From Escherichia coli (GTDB taxonomy: Bacteria > Pseudomonadota > Gammaproteobacteria > Enterobacterales > Enterobacteriaceae): a DNA stretch of 64,000 nt. The stretch lies in the NCBI RefSeq assembly GCF_003018235.1, contig NZ_CP027437.1. One strand, 5' to 3'. Both the position numbers and the translations under genes were made by a program. Positions 4,654 through 55,399 of the stretch are shown here, piece after piece. The notes beneath the pieces were generated by a model. It had not been told where the DNA came from, did not search any database, and saw only the letters and a program-made list of their open reading frames with translations. Positions within the stretch are counted from its first letter, which is position 1; the number at the start of each line of letters is the position of its first letter.

Positions 4654-5667
4654 TTGGATTTTAAACATCTTACTCAATTTAAAGATATAATTGAACTGGA
4701 CAAGCGCCCTGTTAAACTTGATGAACGGGAAACGTTTAATGTCTCATGGGGTATTGATGAGAACTACCAGGTAGGGGCTGCGATTTCAATTGCTTCAATT
4801 CTTGAAAATAATAAACAAAACAAATTTACCTTTCACATAATCGCTGATTACTTAGACAAAGAGTATATTGAATTATTATCACAATTAGCAACGAAGTATC
4901 AAACAGTAATTAAATTATATCATATTGATTCTGAGCCATTGAAGGCGCTACCTCAATCAAATATCTGGCCAGTATCTATTTATTATCGTTTGCTTTCATT
5001 TGATTATTTTTCTGCGCGATTGGATTCATTATTATATCTTGATGCTGATATCGTCTGTAAGGGTTCATTGAACGAGTTAATAGCATTAGAGTTTAAAGAT
5101 GAATATGGGGCTGTGGTAATTGATGTAGATGCTATGCAAAGTAAAAGCGCTGAGCGTTTATGTAATGAGGATTTTAACGGTAGCTATTTTAACTCTGGTG
5201 TAATGTATATTAATTTACGGGAATGGTTACAACAAAGACTAACGGAGAAATTCTTTGATCTATTATCAGATGAGTCAATTATCAAAAAATTAAAGTATCC
5301 GGATCAAGATATTTTAAACTTAATGTTTTTACATCATGCTAAAATATTACCGAGAAAATATAATTGTATTTATACTATAAAGTCAGAATTTGAAGAAAAA
5401 AATAGTGAATATTACACCCAGTTTATTAATGATGAAACTGTCTTCATACATTATACTGGTGTAACTAAGCCATGGCATGATTGGGCGGACTACGCATCTG
5501 CAGATTATTTCCGTAATATTTATAATATATCTCCATGGAGAAATATACCTTATAAAAAAGCTGTTAAAAAACATGAGTACAAAGAAAAATATAAACACTT
5601 GCTTTACCAGAAAAAATTTCTCGATGGTGTTTTTACAGCAATTAAATATAATGTTATGAAAGGTTAA
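4654..5667 (+). CDS. LPS outer-core glycosyltransferase, GT8 family (WaaJ/WaaT-like)
   Basis: 337 aa, paralogous to the 2889-3896 product (same YLDADI / DQD / KPWH motifs). No in-frame ATG after the upstream stop; TTG at 4654 preceded by AAGGG Shine-Dalgarno. Confidence 0.7.
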   Translation: MDFKHLTQFKDIIELDKRPVKLDERETFNVSWGIDENYQVGAAISIASILENNKQNKFTFHIIADYLDKEYIELLSQLATKYQTVIKLYHIDSEPLKALPQSNIWPVSIYYRLLSFDYFSARLDSLLYLDADIVCKGSLNELIALEFKDEYGAVVIDVDAMQSKSAERLCNEDFNGSYFNSGVMYINLREWLQQRLTEKFFDLLSDESIIKKLKYPDQDILNLMFLHHAKILPRKYNCIYTIKSEFEEKNSEYYTQFINDETVFIHYTGVTKPWHDWADYASADYFRNIYNISPWRNIPYKKAVKKHEYKEKYKHLLYQKKFLDGVFTAIKYNVMKG

Positions 5668-38850: not shown

Positions 38851-39110
38851 AAAAACACCCCTTCTTATGTTTGCTGTCGCGCAGGCTGGAAGCCCGAGGT
38901 TTTTTGTTAATGTGGCGGCAGAGGTAGCCGGACCTTGTAGATACTGCGAAATCTGGCACTGAATCGGTTAACTGTCCAGTCGACGGCCTTTTGTGTGATA
39001 TCAGTCACATAAATATAGGGGGTAGAGAGGTAATTGACGTGATGCTCATCACAAAACGACTGTGTAAAAAAGCAACAAGGCGGCGATTTTCGCTAAAAAT
39101 GGCATTTAAA

Positions 39111-39126
39111 TGTGAGTAATGTCACA
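39111..39126. promoter_or_regulatory. CRP binding site (perfect TGTGA-N6-TCACA) in the mtlA upstream region
   Basis: TGTGAgtaatgTCACA, about 260 bp upstream of the mtlA start. Confidence 0.55.
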
Positions 39127-39154
39127 TTTTTGTTTTGTTAGTTTGTTGAATCTT

Positions 39155-39170
39155 TGTGATCTGAATCACA
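39155..39170. promoter_or_regulatory. Second CRP binding site (perfect TGTGA-N6-TCACA) in the mtlA upstream region
   Basis: TGTGAtctgaaTCACA; a third weaker half-site, TGTGAtctgcaGCATG, lies at 39198-39213. Confidence 0.55.
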
Positions 39171-47981: not shown

Positions 47982-48020
47982 AAAGGCAGGCAACGTTAAT
48001 AGTTGTCTGCCTTTGTTTTA
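47982..48020. terminator. Putative bidirectional terminator between convergent aldB and the 359-aa nuclease-like gene
   Basis: AAAGGCAGGCAAC-gttaata-GTTGTCTGCCTTT (13-bp stem, 1 mismatch) followed by a T-rich run. Confidence 0.5.
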
Positions 48021-49097
48021 GTTGTATAAAGCGGCAGTCGCTTTTAACTCATCGCTGAAAGAATAAATATCATCGAGAGATTCAATAGGATGGCGGGTTT
48101 CGTTTTTCTCTAAGTCAAATAAACCAATATATTTTTGATTTCGATTGAAATGTAATCTACAGAGTGGCTTTCGATTATTGTCATCTACAAGTATACCAAA
48201 ATAGCTTTTTGTATCTCTGTGGACTATTCGTGGTGCATCAAGCACTACGCGAACTATAGCTTTAACAATATGAAATCCTTCAAGTTCCTCCATAGTAGTA
48301 GCAATATCGGTTTCTTCTTTATTAATACATTCTACTTCCTCATTGTGTGAATTCGAATCAATTACAGATAATGACCCACCACCTATTGCCGATTTCAATC
48401 TTTCGTTTATTTGAGAGTTAATATATTGATTGGCAGCTTTCTTTGTTAATTTTGCAAACGTATCTTTTACCTTTTGTGTTAACATACCTTCATAAATTCT
48501 TGCTGCAAAGAATTTTACAAAATCCTCTTCAGGATTATTCATTTGTGCATGGAGAACTTTTTTAATTAAACTAACATATTTTAATTCACCTGCAGCATTA
48601 ATTATTGATTCCAAATCAAATGCTGATTTAGTAAGCTTCTTTATCTCGGGAACAACTGTTTCATCTAAGTCAAGTAGATCTATCTCAAGAAATGGTTTTT
48701 CATCCATTTTATTAGGTGCTTCTAAATCAGTAAAAAATTTATAAACTTGTCCATTGGTTAGAATAGATATTCTTGCATTTGTTACATGAAAGTATCGAAA
48801 AAGCTGTGAAGCATGATTTATATTTAGAGGATCGCCAATTTTTTTGCATTCAATGAGAATCTGAACCTCGCTATTTTTTAAGATTGCATAGTCAATCTTT
48901 TCACCTTTCTTCGTTCCAATATCGCATACAAACTCTGGGATAACTTCGGTAGGATCAAAGACATCATAACCTAACACATTGTTAATGAACGGCATTACGA
49001 AAGCATTTTTGGTAGCTTCCTCCGTTTCAATGACTCCGGCTTGTTGTTTTATTTTTGCGGATAATGAATTCAGCTTATCTATAAACTCCATAGACAT
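48018..49097 (-). CDS. Hypothetical protein with N-terminal HsdR_N-like PD-(D/E)xK nuclease domain and an uncharacterised C-terminal domain
   Basis: 359 aa; AAGGAG Shine-Dalgarno 6 nt upstream; N-terminus has the HsdR_N pattern (TEEATKNAFVMPFINNVLGYD, then IDYAIL ... ILIECKK as D...ExK); gene is markedly AT-rich. Confidence 0.6.
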   Translation of the reverse strand: MSMEFIDKLNSLSAKIKQQAGVIETEEATKNAFVMPFINNVLGYDVFDPTEVIPEFVCDIGTKKGEKIDYAILKNSEVQILIECKKIGDPLNINHASQLFRYFHVTNARISILTNGQVYKFFTDLEAPNKMDEKPFLEIDLLDLDETVVPEIKKLTKSAFDLESIINAAGELKYVSLIKKVLHAQMNNPEEDFVKFFAARIYEGMLTQKVKDTFAKLTKKAANQYINSQINERLKSAIGGGSLSVIDSNSHNEEVECINKEETDIATTMEELEGFHIVKAIVRVVLDAPRIVHRDTKSYFGILVDDNNRKPLCRLHFNRNQKYIGLFDLEKNETRHPIESLDDIYSFSDELKATAALYN

Positions 49098-49571: not shown

Positions 49572-49757
49572 GTGAAAAGTGCAGACGTGATCGCCATCCT
49601 GAAGCAGCATGGCTGGGAACATATTCGAACCCGTGGCAGTCATCATCAGTTCCGCCACCCTGTTCATCCGGGTCTGGTGACGGTTCCGCACCCTAAAAAA
49701 GATATTAAGCCCGGTACGCTGGCGCAAATTGGGCGTCAGGCTGGTTTAACATTTTAA
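49572..49757 (+). CDS. hicA: HicA-family toxin (mRNA interferase)
   Basis: 61 aa; HicA motif HGWEHIRTRGSHHQFRHP...VPHPKKDIKPGTLAQIGRQAGL; GTG start assumed, exact start uncertain. Confidence 0.75.
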   Translation: MKSADVIAILKQHGWEHIRTRGSHHQFRHPVHPGLVTVPHPKKDIKPGTLAQIGRQAGLTF

Positions 49758-49773: not shown

Positions 49774-50184
49774 ATGTTTTATCCCGCCTATATCCACAGT
49801 GATCCTGACGGCAGCGCCAGCGGTTTTTTCCCTGATGTTCCAGGCTGTTATTTTGCTGGTGATACGCTGGACAACGCTTTCCAGGATGCGCGAAGTGCAC
49901 TGGTCGCGCACTTCGAAACCTTATGCGAGATGAATGAAGAGTTGCCGCTTCCAGGCTCTGTGGAAACACATCTGGTCCAGCGTGCGCAGGACTTTATTGG
50001 CGGGCAATGGTTGCTGGTGGATATCAATATGAATCAGTTCGAAGGTCGGGCTGAACGTATCAATATTACGATGCCGAAAAGATTACTGAACAAGATTGAT
50101 ACCTACGTGCGCAATAACCCAGACTACGCCAACAGAAGTGCGTTTCTGGCGGAAGCTGCCCGGCGTGTATTGCCGGGCGCTTAA
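49774..50184 (+). CDS. hicB: HicB-family antitoxin (RNase H-like fold with C-terminal ribbon-helix-helix)
   Basis: 136 aa; AGGAGG Shine-Dalgarno; C-terminal RHH-like segment (ITMPKRLLNKIDTYV...SAFLAEAARRVL); 16 bp after hicA. Confidence 0.75.
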   Translation: MFYPAYIHSDPDGSASGFFPDVPGCYFAGDTLDNAFQDARSALVAHFETLCEMNEELPLPGSVETHLVQRAQDFIGGQWLLVDINMNQFEGRAERINITMPKRLLNKIDTYVRNNPDYANRSAFLAEAARRVLPGA

Positions 50185-50255
50185 TCCCGCGTTTCGATGG
50201 TTGGCGGGCAACCGCACCGATATGTTGATACTGATAAGACGCGTTAAGCGTCGCA

Positions 50256-52220
50256 TCATGCGCTGGTTTCCTCATTCACCCAGATCCGCATTTCGCCTTC
50301 ACCCCGGTTAGCCCAGCTAAACCACGGGATAAACGTCAGAGTTTGCGGCTGGCGTTTGGCTGGCGCGCTGTCGTAATGCCACAGCGGTTGCTGCTCTGGA
50401 TTGCTCTGTTCATACCGGTAACCCGGTGCCTGGATTAAGATCTTATGGCTGAACAATCCCTTGCCTTCAAAGGTCGTAAATGGCGCATCGGCGGGCAGCC
50501 ACAGGTTATGTAGTGACTCGCCGTTGTCGGCCTGTTCCAGGCAATACACCAGCGGGCCGCGCTGAATCGCCACTTTTCCGGCGACGTGACGCACCAGCGG
50601 GTTACCGTAAACGCGGCGTACCGGCATCGGCAAAGTCAGATTCAGCGTATCGCCCTCCTGCCATTCGCGGGTAATGTGCAAATACCCTTTACGAATATCC
50701 TGCCCGACCTCTTCCCCATTCAATATGATCTGCGGCTGTGTGCACCAGTCCGGCAGACGTAAAGCCAGCGTATGACGCACCGGCTGGGGCGATTCAACCG
50801 CAATTGTCACCTGTTCCTGCCACGGATAGTTCCCGCTAATCCGCAGGCGCAACGTGCCATTTTCTACCGGCACTTCCATGCTGTTTCCTGCATATATGTT
50901 GATATACAACGCATCTTCACGCGGCGTGTAGAGATAATGACCAATCGAGGTCAGTACGCGGGCGATATTTGGCGGACAACAAGCGCAGCCAAACCAACGC
51001 TGGCGGATCGGCTTAACGTGATCGTAGATATGGTTGAATTTCAGCGATTTTGGATGTACTTCCAGCGGATTCACATAGAAGAAATGTTTGCCATCCAGTG
51101 CCATGCCGCCGAGCACAGTGTTGTACAGTGCGCGCTCCATCACATCGGCATATTGACTGTCGCCTTCCATTTCCAGCATTCGTCGGGCGAACATCATCAG
51201 GCCGATGGAAGCACAACTTTCGGCGTAAACCGTGTCATTCGGCAGATCGTAATCGCTGCTAAACGCTTCGCCGCTGCTTTGTGAGCCAATGCCGCCGGTA
51301 ATATATAACTGACGCTGGGCCATATTGTTCCACAGCCGCAGGCAATCCTGACGCTTGCTTTCATCGTGACTTAAACGCGCCAGATGTGCGACGCCAGTCA
51401 TCAGGTAGACAAAGCGTACTGCATGTCCGATGGCGGTTTGTTGCTGTGCGATGGGCAAATGCGCCTGGCTGTAGGCTTTATCTTTCACCATCCACGCCGG
51501 GCCGTAGGTGTGCCAGTGCGAGGTCTGCCCGCGCTTTTCATATTCCTGGTCGTAATAGTGCGGTTGCGCACCACGCTGTTCGACAAAATAGTTCGTCAGC
51601 GCCAGGTAGCGCGGCTCTTCGGTCACTTCATACAGGCGCATTAGTGCCAGTTCAATTTCCGGGTGACCAGGATAACCGTGTAACTTACTTTCACCTGGAC
51701 CAAATACGCTGTCGATATGATCGGCCAGACGGCAAACCACTTCCAGCAAGCGCCGCTTGCCCGTGGCCTGGAAGAAGGCGACTCCGGCTTCAATCAGATG
51801 ACCGGCGCAGTAAAGTTCATGACACTCCGCCAGATTGCTCCAGCGTTCTTCGGGCGCTTTTACCGTAAAGTAAGTATTGAGATAGCCATCTTCGCACTGG
51901 GCGGAGGCGATCAGTTCAATCACCTCGTCAGCAGTTTTTTCCAGTTCGGCATCCGGCTTCTGGCACAGCGACCAGGCTACCGCTTCCAGCCATTTGGCGA
52001 CGTCGCTGTCCTGAAACACCATCCCGTAAAATTCACCGTCTTGCAGTCCTGCGGCAATGCGAAAGTTTTCAATCGCATGGCTGGGTTCCGCTTCTGGGAT
52101 ACGATCGTTCAAGGCGTCCCACTGATAAGGAATCACCACATCGCGGACCAGTTGTTGGTACTGACCGAGGAACGGATCGCTGACCGTCAGTTTATGCAGA
52201 TCGACTTCCGAAATGTTCAT
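50256..52220 (-). CDS. Glycoside hydrolase family 127 (DUF1680; beta-L-arabinofuranosidase-like)
   Basis: ORF track starts at an upstream TTG; ATG at 52220 (MNISEVDLHKL) is preceded by AAGGAG and gives about 654 aa; Cys-rich motif WFGCACCPPNIARVL. Confidence 0.75.
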   Translation of the reverse strand: MNISEVDLHKLTVSDPFLGQYQQLVRDVVIPYQWDALNDRIPEAEPSHAIENFRIAAGLQDGEFYGMVFQDSDVAKWLEAVAWSLCQKPDAELEKTADEVIELIASAQCEDGYLNTYFTVKAPEERWSNLAECHELYCAGHLIEAGVAFFQATGKRRLLEVVCRLADHIDSVFGPGESKLHGYPGHPEIELALMRLYEVTEEPRYLALTNYFVEQRGAQPHYYDQEYEKRGQTSHWHTYGPAWMVKDKAYSQAHLPIAQQQTAIGHAVRFVYLMTGVAHLARLSHDESKRQDCLRLWNNMAQRQLYITGGIGSQSSGEAFSSDYDLPNDTVYAESCASIGLMMFARRMLEMEGDSQYADVMERALYNTVLGGMALDGKHFFYVNPLEVHPKSLKFNHIYDHVKPIRQRWFGCACCPPNIARVLTSIGHYLYTPREDALYINIYAGNSMEVPVENGTLRLRISGNYPWQEQVTIAVESPQPVRHTLALRLPDWCTQPQIILNGEEVGQDIRKGYLHITREWQEGDTLNLTLPMPVRRVYGNPLVRHVAGKVAIQRGPLVYCLEQADNGESLHNLWLPADAPFTTFEGKGLFSHKILIQAPGYRYEQSNPEQQPLWHYDSAPAKRQPQTLTFIPWFSWANRGEGEMRIWVNEETSA

Positions 52221-52230
52221 CTTGTGCTCC

Positions 52231-53631
52231 TTAAGGCTGTACATGACGCTGACGCAGGTCGCTAGCAATGCGTGACATCATAGGGTTATTGAGTTTGCAA
52301 AAGCGGATCGCCATCGCCAGCAGTAGGTGGAATAGCGCAGGCAGCAATGTTTCCATCGCCGTGATCCCGCCAAGCGAACTGGCGGTCTGGTTTTCTACGC
52401 CTGGCTGGTAGGCGACAAAAATAAACAGCAGGCTGATGATCCCGGCGCTGGAGGCCCAGGCCAGTTTGATGAAAAACAGATTGAAGGCGAAGTTCATGCC
52501 GGAAGAACGTACGCGGGTTTTCCACTCGCCGTAGTCATCGGCAAAGGCCATCAATGAGAAGTGCAGTGGCAATGTGAAGCCAAGAATCACGCCATTACCG
52601 AGGATCACCGCCAGCCACAGCGTTTGATAAGCCGGGCCGGAGGGCAGGAACCACATCAACACCGCCAGTGAAGCGAGGAGCAGGTTGGTGTAGTAATAAA
52701 TTTTGACGGTATCGAAACGCCGCGTTAACGGGCTGACAATCACCGAGCCGATAATGGAGGCGAAGGTGACCATAGTGAAGAACAGCGACGTGTAGCCCGT
52801 ACTGCCTTGTAAGACGTAGGTAATGAAGTACATATACCCACCGCCGCGAATATTAAAGACGTTAATCAGCAGGAAAGACATGACCAGCATCAGCAGCAGT
52901 TGGTCGTTGTTTCGCAGCCCGGCAAGATGTTCGCGCAGGGTAAATTTCCCCATTGTGGAGAGTGGTACCCGTTCACGAACCCAGAAGAAACAGCACAGGA
53001 ACATCACCACAGCGATGGCGCACAGCACGCCGACGCCCAGTTGATAGCCGCGCGCGGCATTACCCTGACCGAAGAGATCCACCATCCACGGTAAGCCTAC
53101 CGAAACCAGAAATCCCGCTACACCGCAGAGAACGAATCGCCAGGACTGGCAGGAGATCACTTCATTGTGGCGGGTGGTCATGGTGTTGATCAGCGCGCAG
53201 TACGGCACGTTGATGGCGGTATAACCGACTGAAAGGAGCAGGTAAGTGCCGAACGCCCAGGCGATTTTTACTCCCATGCTGGCATCTGGCACGGTGAACG
53301 TCAGGATGCCGATAATGCCGATGGGAATGGCAATCCATAACTGCCACGGACGAAAGCGCCCCCAGTGACTTTGCGTCCGGTCGGCAATGACGCCCATCAC
53401 CGGGTCGGAGATGGCATCAAACACGCGCAGTGCAATAAACAGCGTGCCGACCAGCGCCGGAGTTAAGCCAAAAACGTCGGTGTAGAAAAAGGTGAGAAAG
53501 TTCATGATCAGGCAAGTTATTACGGTGCCGCCTGCGTCACCCAGGCCGTAGCCTATTTTTTCCCGTACAGATAACGCATCGTCAATTTTACCTTTAGCGA
53601 TATCAGCGGTAGTAATCGGTGTAGAGGTCAT
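52231..53631 (-). CDS. MFS glycoside-pentoside-hexuronide (GPH):cation symporter
   Basis: 466 aa, polytopic; GPH signature [25 protein letters not shown]; its stop lies 10 bp before the GH127 start. Confidence 0.8.
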
Positions 53632-53856
53632 AGATATTCCTCGTGAATAGGGAGCAATTTTTAGTTTTATTGCAATGACCTGATTAATTCTGCCGTGAAC
53701 GGGAATATCAACAAGGCGAGAAAAGAGTAAAAAAAGGTGACGATTCCGACCTGAATTTAAAAGTGTGAATTGGATCAGGTGAAATTAATGTTTTTGATTA
53801 ATAATCAAAAGGTAATGTGTTTAATCATTAATGAATAAGCGGGAAATTACATATCA

Positions 53857-54672
53857 ATGCTCGAATTATCCATGACGTTACCGATTAAAGTGCAAAATGG
53901 TGGATTATTTATTTCCCGTGGCGTAGGGAGGCATCCGGCAAGGCGGCTGGAGTCATGGGAAATTATCTTTGTCGAAAAAGGTCGATTAGCGATTCAGGAA
54001 GAAGAGCGGATATTTCTGGTCGATGCGGGAGAGAGTTTATTACTCTGGCCGAACCGACAGCATGTTGGGGTAGAGGATTTTCCCGCCGATCTCAAATTTT
54101 ACTGGCTGCATTTTGAGGTTAAAGCGCCGGATAGCGACCCGCGCTGGCTCACTCATCTTAGCGTGCCGCAACAAACGAAGGTTGCCGATCCGCAGGCGCT
54201 GGTGGCCCTGTTTCGCCAGTTCTTAAGCGAACAGGAAAAGCATCAACGCACTCCGGCGCTGGAGTTTATTGTGCTGCTGATTTTGCAGCAGCTCACCCGT
54301 GACGCGCGTCTTGATGAACAGGCCGATGCCGCAGGTACCACGCTTGCCTGGAAAGCGCAGAAACTGATCCGCACGCAATATCATCGCCCGCTTTCTACGG
54401 CGCTTTTAGCCCGCGAGCTGTACTGCAATGCCGATTATCTTGGGCGTGTCTATCGGCGGGTGTTTCATCTGACGTTAACAGAAGCAATTCATCGCCAGCG
54501 AGTGCGCGAAGCCGAAAAGCTGTTAATTAGCGAAGCGCGATCGCTCACTGAAGTGGCGGCGTTGTGCGGGTTTAATGACGTTGGCTATTTCCGGCAGATT
54601 TTTCGCAAACACACCGGTTTAACGCCAGCTGCGTGGAAGCGACGTTACAGCAAGGAACATATCAATTCGTAG
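53857..54672 (+). CDS. AraC/XylS-family transcriptional regulator
   Basis: 271 aa, N-terminal cupin-like domain and C-terminal double HTH (...EVAALCGFNDVGYFRQIFRKHTGLTPAAWKR); divergent from the transporter-GH127 pair. Confidence 0.8.
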   Translation: MLELSMTLPIKVQNGGLFISRGVGRHPARRLESWEIIFVEKGRLAIQEEERIFLVDAGESLLLWPNRQHVGVEDFPADLKFYWLHFEVKAPDSDPRWLTHLSVPQQTKVADPQALVALFRQFLSEQEKHQRTPALEFIVLLILQQLTRDARLDEQADAAGTTLAWKAQKLIRTQYHRPLSTALLARELYCNADYLGRVYRRVFHLTLTEAIHRQRVREAEKLLISEARSLTEVAALCGFNDVGYFRQIFRKHTGLTPAAWKRRYSKEHINS

Positions 54673-54703
54673 TGCCGGGGCAATGAAGCCCCGGCGTGAG
54701 GGA

Positions 54704-55399
54704 TTACTGCCCGTAATAGGCATTGGCCCCATGCTTACGCAGGTAGTGCTTATCCAACAGTTCGTTTTGCATCGCAGGAAGCTGCGGCGCAAGCTGACGC
54801 GAGAACAGGCCCATATAGGCACACTCTTCCAGCACCACGGCGTTATGCACTGCATCGGCGGCATTTTTTCCCCAGGCGAACGGGCCGTGAGAATGTACCA
54901 GAACCGCCGGGATTTGCGCTGGACTCCTGCCGCGTTCTTCGAGGGTTTCAATGATCACTTCGCCAGTCTGGTATTCATACTCGCCGTTGATCTCTTCTGC
55001 GGTCATCAGGCGCGTGCAGGGGATGGCTCCATAGAAGTAATCGGCGTGCGTGGTGCCCCAGGCGGGGAGATCCAGCCCGGCCTGTGACCAGATGGTCGCG
55101 TGGCGCGAGTGGGTATGCACAATGCCACCGATTTCGGCATAGCGACGGTAGAGCGCCAGATGCGTTGGCGTGTCGGACGAGGGCTTTTTGCTGCCTTCCA
55201 CCCCCTTACCGCTGGCTATCTCAACCACCACCATATCGTCGGCGGTCATCACGTCGTACTCGACGCCGGAAGGTTTGATTACCATCCATTGCCGCGTTTC
55301 GTCTACCGCGCTGACATTGCCCCAGGTGAACGTCACCAGATGGTGAGCGGGAAGTGCCAGATTTGCCGCCAGCACGTCGGCTTTCAGTTGCTCTAACAT
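54704..55399 (-). CDS. sgbE: L-ribulose-5-phosphate 4-epimerase
   Basis: 231 aa class II aldolase/epimerase fold; last gene of the yiaK-sgbE operon. Confidence 0.85.

Follow-up and report, generated by a model that had tools for sequence, protein, structure and literature searches.

Gene content and layout of the locus

What do three adjacent genes for an AraC-type regulator, a transporter and a glycoside hydrolase do on this Escherichia coli chromosome, and do they share a pathway with the neighbouring sgb genes? The locus was analysed within a window of 64,000 nucleotides (contig NZ_CP027437.1), and its features are collected in Table 1. A first-pass annotation had described a putative module for the import and cleavage of plant-derived beta-L-arabinofuranosides, with the released pentose possibly taken further by the sgb genes. 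Its sequence statements all held when they were checked against the ORFs and the sequence; of its interpretation, the unit layout and the GH127 homology were retained and the sgb link was not. The module is genuine, and as a sugar-scavenging unit of three genes (a regulator, a membrane importer and a predicted cytoplasmic GH127 glycosidase) it is ordinary.

Table 1. Coordinates of the features of the locus in the window.
Feature	Position	Strand	Details
GH127 glycoside hydrolase	50256-52220	-	654 aa; Pfam and PDB matches, invariant catalytic residues
GH127 catalytic codons	E318 51269-51267; E334 51221-51219; C336 51215-51213; C414 50981-50979; C415 50978-50976	-	
Segment absent from E. coli K-12	50548-54568		4,021 bp; delimited by blastn with the K-12 scar
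Transporter/GH127 junction	52221-52233	-	TAA stop, overlapping AAGGAG Shine-Dalgarno, 10 nt to ATG
GPH:cation symporter family transporter	52231-53631	-	ORF, 466 aa; GPH, glycoside-pentoside-hexuronide
Divergent control region	53632-53856		225 bp, AT-rich; between regulator and transporter genes
AraC/XylS-family regulator	53857-54672	+	ORF, 271 aa; N-terminal AraC-like (cupin) ligand-binding domain, C-terminal HTH_18
GC-rich hairpin	54674-54695		in the 31-nt spacer between regulator and sgbE

The mechanical ORF of the hydrolase opens at TTG 52268, but the real start is ATG 52220, and RefSeq uses this start as well in a nearly identical genome. RefSeq/PGAP names the three products 'glycoside hydrolase family 127 protein', 'MFS transporter' and 'AraC family transcriptional regulator', and its gene calls are identical to ours. 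The novelty of the locus had therefore been overestimated, as RefSeq already carries the same annotation. The strong family matches described below, the orthologues in 69 species loci and dN/dS values of 0.03-0.14 show that the three genes are not chance ORFs.

On the minus strand the junction between transporter and hydrolase reads ...CAG CCT TAA GGAGCACAAG ATG, and the distance from stop to start is exactly 10 nt, as had been claimed. The AAGGAG at 52232-52227 lies 6 nt ahead of the GH127 ATG. It had been placed inside the 3' end of the transporter gene, which is nearly right: it shares the last two bases of the TAA stop codon. A T(A/G)AGGAG-N6-ATG layout with a 10-nt gap was found in 52 of the 69 species loci; the other gap values came mostly from alignments not starting at residue 1, and the junction is kept in at least 52. 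The 10-nt gap, the Shine-Dalgarno sequence overlapping the stop and the adjacency of the two genes in all 69 loci suggest that transporter and hydrolase are co-transcribed. Terminator-like matches within the coding regions were weak, with stems of 5-6 bp.

The GH127 hydrolase

Three GH127 Pfam domains were detected, PF07944 (1.1e-111, residues 12-427), PF20736 (4e-23, residues 438-532) and PF20737 (3.5e-25, residues 534-649), so that the catalytic (alpha/alpha)6 domain is followed by the middle and C-terminal beta domains and the protein belongs to the family. The best structural match was PDB 4QJY, a Geobacillus GH127 protein (E 1e-235, about 55% identity over 630 aligned residues), whose beta-L-arabinofuranosidase activity we take from the name of the PDB deposition and a cited title. 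The match to HypBA1 (PDB 3wkw) was much weaker (E 8e-153), and further relatives were 6ex6 (E 3e-115) and 5mqo (E 1e-94).

The WFGCACCPPN motif occupies residues 409-418 (nt 50996-50967). In HypBA1, Glu322 is the acid/base, Cys417 is the nucleophile and a Cys3-Glu site holds zinc (PMC8106489). Glu322 aligned with E318 and Cys417 with C414, and both residues were invariant in 81 orthologues. The predicted Zn2+ site of E334, C336, C414 and C415 was likewise fully present and invariant in this set. It corresponds to the HypBA1 ligands Glu338, Cys340, Cys417 and Cys418. No hydrophobic stretch was found at the N-terminus of the GH127 protein, so the enzyme would be cytoplasmic and would need an importer.

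By homology, the protein is predicted to be a cytoplasmic beta-L-arabinofuranosidase (EC 3.2.1.185). The identity to 4QJY, the HypBA1 match and the invariant Glu, Cys and zinc ligands agree with the activity that had been proposed, but the family contains other specificities. Examples are aceric acid hydrolase and 3,6-anhydro-D-galactosidase (PMC5698469). The aceric acid hydrolase equivalog (NCBIfam NF049879) scored 455.4 bits against a cut-off of 950 bits and was rejected.

Transporter, regulator and control region

The transporter showed multiple hydrophobic segments and matched TIGR00792 'gph' with 330.8 bits (cut-off 231.35; residues 25-462 on model positions 1-437), which places it in the GPH family. 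The best NCBIfam matches among named members all stayed under their cut-offs, namely YagG (354.6 against 610 bits), PRK11462 (322.6 against 836), MelB (206.8 against 456) and the glucuronide transporter (191.8 against 528). The protein thus forms a separate GPH subfamily. Its identity across the other Enterobacterales triad loci was 79-98%, with the exception of Rouxiella (69%).

In the regulator, HTH_18 (4e-19, residues 184-263) and AraC_binding (1.5e-8, residues 26-132) establish membership of the AraC/XylS family; the activator role given in the first-pass annotation was an assumption. The top NCBIfam match was AraC itself (NF007860), but 61.2 bits is far under the equivalog cut-off of 208 bits, so the regulator belongs to the AraC family and is not AraC.

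Within the control region lies a perfect palindrome, TTTTGATTA-A-TAATCAAAA (53792-53810), which is conserved. An FNR site at this position was rejected, because the half-sites TTGAT and ATCAA are spaced by 5 nt and not 4. Per-column conservation over 70 aligned intergenic regions gave further conserved blocks at about 53715-53745 and at 53662-53685. A CRP-like sequence, TGTGAattggaTCAgg, at 53764-53779 has two mismatches to TGTGA-N6-TCACA; this pattern is not above chance in the window (20 found, 25.6 expected), and it is cross-species conservation that makes the sequence a candidate CRP site. A simple scan of 50000-54800 gave no consensus sigma-70 promoter, a result that is expected for activator-dependent transcription but is uninformative.

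Conservation and distribution

The order and orientation of the triad, a transporter-hydrolase pair with a divergent AraC-type regulator as first described, were identical in 69 Enterobacterales species loci, regardless of which genes lie beside it. The dN/dS values given above indicate purifying selection on all three genes. In the comparison with the nearest Escherichia species, for which dS is not saturated, they were 0.03-0.06. No stop codons were found in the 81 orthologues. The flanks in Pantoea and Bradyrhizobium held unrelated genes, and no secreted GH121 or GH43 enzyme or binding protein was found beside the triad there.

Within E. coli the triad was intact in 2313 of 5426 complete genomes (about 43%), and the carriers include BL21 and probable O157-type strains. 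The K-12-type deletion junction was present in 2461 of the 5426 (about 45%). In K-12, the 4,021-bp deletion left a scar annotated as the pseudogenes ysaC/ysaD, which joins window positions 50358-50547 directly to 54569-54726 (blastn of the scar against the window). In E. coli, GH127 has been described as an accessory family whose presence depends on the clade (bioRxiv 10.1101/2021.10.19.464957), and an E. coli GH127-family gene was up-regulated in a transcriptome study (PMC6561948). GH127 is also reported to co-segregate with invasiveness in isolates from IBD (PMC11879602), which hints that the presence/deletion polymorphism may be niche-relevant; the link to invasive isolates might be no more than phylogenetic hitch-hiking.

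Our literature search for the characterisation of an E. coli or enterobacterial GH127 enzyme, its transporter or its regulator returned genome surveys and one transcriptome mention only; the search on ysaC/ysaD returned nothing relevant to the locus. RefSeq and published surveys already cover the genes, the families they belong to and their uneven occurrence across E. coli.

Proposed function and alternatives

We consider that the triad is probably an accessory catabolic module, complete in itself, with which E. coli and other Enterobacterales would use small beta-L-arabinofuranosides, a reading drawn from homology. A small glycoside, perhaps beta-1,2-L-arabinofuranobiose, Araf-beta-hydroxyproline or a similar plant-derived fragment, would be brought in by the GPH symporter together with a cation. 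The signal-less GH127 enzyme would then cleave non-reducing beta-L-arabinofuranose in the cytoplasm with the zinc-held nucleophile C414 and the acid/base E318, and the L-arabinose set free would be metabolised by the usual AraA/AraB/AraD route. The divergent regulator would turn the transporter-hydrolase pair on when the sugar is present, and the module would probably also be under catabolite control. No secreted E. coli enzyme is known to release such beta-L-arabinofuranoside fragments, so other organisms would have to supply the substrate.

The same architecture could serve another natural substrate, such as a different furanoside, an unusual GH127 sugar or, in place of the extensin-type beta-1,2 fragments, an arabinoside that is beta-1,3-linked or aglycone-specific. 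This is unlikely, in our judgement, given how far the aceric acid hydrolase score falls below its cut-off, how much closer the two proteins deposited as beta-L-arabinofuranosidases are, and that the catalytic and zinc residues are identical to those of HypBA1. In its favour are the several specificities of the family, the matches to 6ex6 and 5mqo, a transporter that matches no curated equivalog, and the fact that the aceric acid hydrolase model is the sole NCBIfam equivalog to match the GH127 protein at all. Least credible of all is the reading that the genes are decaying or cryptic and no longer serve a function in E. coli: the deletion in nearly half of the complete genomes would fit it, and no growth phenotype of the module is known, but the frames are intact in all three genes of the 2313 carriers, the orthologues are free of stops, dN/dS is low even against the nearest Escherichia species, and a GH127-family gene responded in the transcriptome study cited above. 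The intact frames and the dN/dS values led us to reject a pseudogene.

The remaining alternative takes up the earlier suggestion that the sgb genes carry the released pentose further, and joins the module and the neighbouring yiaK-S/sgb operon into one pentose pathway, with SgbE, SgbU and LyxK processing the sugar. The proximity itself is exact: sgbE (54704-55399, minus strand) ends 31 nt from the regulator stop and is followed by sgbU, sgbH, lyxK and yiaO. This adjacency recurs in 25 of the 69 species loci, and SgbE is annotated as an L-ribulose-5-phosphate 4-epimerase, the same reaction as that of AraD. In 44 of the 69, however, the triad stands without sgbE alongside, the flanks in Pantoea being unrelated genes. 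Where the two adjoin in the window they are convergent, with a hairpin, GCCGGGGC-AATGAA-GCCCCGGC, between them (−22.1 kcal/mol for a 45-nt stretch, z = −3.1); it has no U-run, so that it can only be called a putative terminator. At its far end the yia operon carries yiaJ, an IclR-type regulator gene of its own, and K-12 lost the module yet retained the whole sgb operon. By established biochemistry L-arabinose requires AraA and AraB, neither of which comes from the sgb operon, and L-arabinose released by the module would go into AraA/AraB/AraD with no need of SgbE. Synteny, orientation and pathway logic thus led us to discard sgb coupling, which we hold to be highly improbable, and the adjacency looks like a shared chromosomal position between the yia operon and aldB.

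If the module does act on small beta-L-arabinofuranosides, certain E. coli lineages and many Enterobacterales might cross-feed on beta-Ara2 or Hyp-arabinosides that other gut bacteria, Bifidobacterium longum for example, release from extensins or arabinogalactan proteins of the diet, and the balance of presence and deletion in E. coli would then be niche-relevant; we put this forward tentatively, as a possibility that is more doubtful than probable. The discovery value of the locus is small and its practical value modest. The module is present in thousands of E. coli genomes, including the laboratory strain BL21, with K-12 as a natural deletion mutant, and defining its function could add a carbon source to those known for E. 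coli and establish a GPH transporter specificity.

Comparison with known systems

The closest solved relative of the hydrolase is Ara127N of Geobacillus stearothermophilus T6 (PDB 4QJY/4QK0), which shares its three-domain layout and its C-x-C-C motif. Its host is a Gram-positive thermophile, unlike E. coli, and its gene lies in a large L-arabinan utilisation cluster with ABC transporters, not with a GPH symporter and an AraC-type regulator.

HypBA1 of B. longum follows the same logic, an intracellular GH127 enzyme cleaving an imported small beta-L-arabinofuranoside, with the same acid/base Glu, Cys nucleophile and Cys3-Glu zinc site. In the HypBA2/ABC-transporter/HypBA1 system of B. longum, a secreted GH121 acts on hydroxyproline-rich glycoproteins to release beta-Ara2, and uptake is by an ABC importer (PMC8106489). 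The E. coli module has neither the GH121 nor the ABC importer and carries a GPH symporter instead; without a GH121 it could only scavenge fragments made by others.

Its design is the same as that of the K-12 pairs in which a GPH importer adjoins a signal-less cytoplasmic glycosidase, namely yicJ-yicI, yagG-yagH, uidB-uidA and melB-melA. The difference lies in the hydrolase family, GH127 with a cysteine nucleophile here as against GH31, GH43, GH2 and GH4 in the K-12 pairs.

Organization of the Locus

The window lies in the E. coli chromosome, with the order mtlA ... selAB, yiaY, aldB ... sgb/yia operon. Over the 4.7 kb surrounding the GH127 module, identity to complete E. coli genomes reached 99.1%, and every match was chromosomal. 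The sequence statements of the first-pass annotation (ORFs, 10-nt gap, AAGGAG, WFGCACCPPN motif, divergence, and sgb adjacency) were all borne out. The TAA stop of the transporter was 10 nt from the GH127 ATG. The AAGGAG placed at the transporter 3′ end was confirmed; the motif takes in the final two bases of the stop codon, and 6 nt separate it from the ATG. In the mechanical ORF list the GH127 frame runs back to a TTG at 52268, instead of the ATG used by RefSeq. WFGCACCPPN occupied residues 409-418. The ends of sgbE and the convergent regulator gene were 31 nt apart, with a GC-rich hairpin in the gap.

Features of the module and its surroundings (window coordinates)
Feature	Position	Strand	Basis or remark
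AraC/XylS-family regulator gene, 271 aa	53857-54672	+	ORF
AT-rich spacer, 225 bp, between divergent regulator and transporter	53632-53856		sequence
Perfect 9-1-9 palindrome	53792-53810		in conserved spacer blocks
CRP-like TGTGA-N6-TCAgg	divergent spacer		among conserved blocks (70 sequences)
GPH-family symporter gene, 466 aa	52231-53631	-	ORF
GH127 gene, 654 aa	52220 (ATG)-50256 (stop)	-	start from RefSeq call in near-identical genome
hicA	49572-49757	+	type II toxin-antitoxin pair
hicB	49774-50184	+	type II toxin-antitoxin pair
359-aa gene, ~32% GC	48018-49097	-	between aldB and hicA
Four clustered CRP consensus sites (upstream of mtlA-like ORF)	38994-39170		divergent spacer

Conservation of the Three Genes

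Relatives of the hydrolase were sought in one genome per species, and the best 80 loci of the 278 stretches found were kept. The proposed arrangement, a transporter–hydrolase pair with a divergent AraC-type gene, was retained in the same order and orientation in 69 of these 80, and the stop/Shine-Dalgarno/10-nt/ATG junction was identical in at least 52 of the 69. All 69 were from Enterobacterales, including Escherichia, Citrobacter, Klebsiella, Raoultella, Enterobacter, Kluyvera, Leclercia, Lelliottia, Buttiauxella, Pantoea, Mixta, Rouxiella, and Salmonella enterica subsp. diarizonae. Nei-Gojobori dN/dS values against several species spanned 0.02-0.07 (hydrolase), 0.03-0.14 (transporter), and 0.06-0.14 (regulator). 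Against the nearest Escherichia species, where the comparison is unsaturated, they were 0.037, 0.028, and 0.060, respectively.

Across 70 sequences, conservation exceeded 90% in several blocks of the divergent spacer. Because the CRP-like match was not above chance as a pattern and no sigma-70 consensus promoter was found at the locus, the regulation of the module is put forward here as predicted.

Bradyrhizobium spp. (six loci; e.g., L076, 4701-8953) carried a GH127 protein 72% identical to that of E. coli, with no GPH or AraC genes. This is unexpectedly close for alpha- and gamma-proteobacteria and suggests horizontal transfer. In L076 the gene follows immediately on a 698-aa ORF matching an S9 (oligopeptidase B-like) peptidase, a neighbour that hints at glycopeptides as substrates. 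One record titled Chryseobacterium sp. 18061 showed enterobacterial synteny (GH127 85%, AldB 93% identity) and was almost identical to the Citrobacter sp. 18056 locus; it is probably mislabelled or contaminated.

Relationship to the sgb Genes

The earlier suggestion that the released pentose is taken further by the sgb genes was rejected on synteny, orientation, yiaJ, pathway, and K-12. Of the 69 triad loci, 25 had sgbE next to the regulator gene and 44 did not; in Pantoea ananatis the flank held an ABC transporter, a phosphodiesterase, and a diguanylate cyclase. Many loci also had aldB within a few kb on the opposite flank. The module and the sgb/yia operon are convergent, and the latter has its own regulator gene, yiaJ. 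E. coli converts L-arabinose to D-xylulose-5-phosphate via AraA, AraB, and AraD, and only the final reaction is also catalysed by SgbE. K-12 has lost the module and retained the whole sgb operon. The most economical interpretation is that the two units share a place on the chromosome rather than a pathway, and the connection should be dropped. In Escherichia whittamii (L004, 3657-5364) only 44 bp separate the end of sgbU from the AraC-type gene, a gap that cannot hold sgbE; apparently this species has lost sgbE and kept the module, which is further evidence against functional dependence.

Occurrence across E. coli and the K-12 Deletion

The central 4,021 bp of the module (≥80% coverage) was present in 2313 of 5426 complete genomes, including a BL21 derivative; the large cattle and pork isolates among the carriers are, going by their genome size and source, probably O157-type. 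In K-12 MG1655, pseudogenes ysaC and ysaD are annotated at the position adjoining sgbE. Alignment to the window showed 50358-50547, within the GH127 gene, fused directly to 54569-54726 (the final 104 nt of the regulator gene and the start of the sgbE end), so the loss in K-12 is a clean 4,021-bp deletion. A 120-bp probe across this joint (≥80% coverage) detected the K-12-type junction in 2461 of the 5426 genomes; intact and K-12-type alleles together made up ~88%. Within the MG1655 locus, 4814-5110 corresponds to 50358-50547 joined to 54569-54672. Both pseudogenes are edges of the deletion: ysaC derives from the 3′ end of the AraC-type gene, ysaD from an internal-to-3′ stretch of the GH127 gene.

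Immediately beyond the 3′ end of the GH127 gene, in convergent orientation, was the hicA/hicB pair; at this position K-12 has yiaT-yiaU-yiaV-yiaW, and HicB homologues adjoin the GH127 gene in several other genera. The neighbouring 359-aa product, named 'type I restriction endonuclease' by RefSeq, gave weak HSDR_N/PD-(D/E)XK nuclease-like matches (Pfam 1.8e-7; PADLOC type IIG REase-MTase 2.7e-7). No more than 189 of the 5426 complete E. coli genomes had its gene, which was absent from those best matching the module and appears to be a recent insertion of small size, perhaps a stand-alone defence or nuclease gene. The four CRP sites were near-perfect (three with 0 mismatches) and clustered upstream of a 637-aa minus-strand ORF whose length and location fit mtlA; they presumably mark the known mannitol promoter with its multiple CRP sites.

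Proposed Function

Domain and family profile matches supported the AraC-type and GPH identities. The transporter exceeded the curated GPH threshold (TIGR00792, 330.8 against 231.35) and fell under those of the YagG, PRK11462, MelB, and glucuronide transporter models; these scores assign it to the GPH family, with undefined specificity. The regulator combined AraC-like ligand-binding and HTH_18 DNA-binding domains and scored well under the AraC equivalog cut-off. As no hydrophobic stretch was found at the hydrolase N-terminus, the enzyme should be cytoplasmic.

We consider it likely that a small beta-L-arabinofuranoside would be taken in by cation-coupled import and cleaved in the cytoplasm by the Zn/Cys GH127 enzyme, the freed L-arabinose feeding into AraBAD, with transcription of the pair governed by the AraC-type protein. 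Since we know of no obvious secreted E. coli enzyme that would release such fragments, plants or other microbes may supply the substrate. The main rival, which we regard as rather improbable, keeps the same design with a different glycoside as substrate. Aceric acid hydrolase was the sole NCBIfam equivalog matching the hydrolase; at 455 bits, under half of the 950-bit cut-off, this specificity is therefore not indicated. What value remains lies in a simple comparison of K-12 with BL21 or a wild strain, from which a substrate could be assigned.

The module is real, ordinary, and already annotated, and its core reading is correct; the RefSeq labels of the three genes match the first-pass inference exactly. 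No activity measurement for the E. coli enzyme, transporter, or regulator was found in the accessible literature, most subscription journals lying outside the search. A preprint (bioRxiv 10.1101/2021.10.19.464957) places GH127 among the accessory CAZy families whose presence in E. coli depends on clade, and a 2024 paper reported that GH127 co-segregates with invasiveness in IBD isolates, interpreting it as a beta-Ara2-cleaving enzyme (PMC11879602).

Comparison with Characterized GH127 Enzymes

The assignment to GH127 held up on domains, structural matches, and conserved catalytic residues. The protein showed the complete Pfam architecture (PF07944, 1e-111, then middle and C-terminal domains). 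Its nearest solved structure was the Geobacillus GH127 beta-L-arabinofuranosidase (4QJY/4QK0; E 1e-235, ~55% identity over 630 aligned residues), followed by B. longum HypBA1 (E 8e-153). The latter is a cysteine glycosidase with nucleophile Cys417, acid/base Glu322, and zinc in a Cys3-Glu site (PMC8106489). Its catalytic and zinc positions aligned with C414, E318, E334, C336, and C415 of the E. coli hydrolase, all unchanged across 81 orthologous sequences. By alignment, the two enzymes thus share the nucleophile Cys, the acid/base Glu, and the Cys3-Glu zinc positions.
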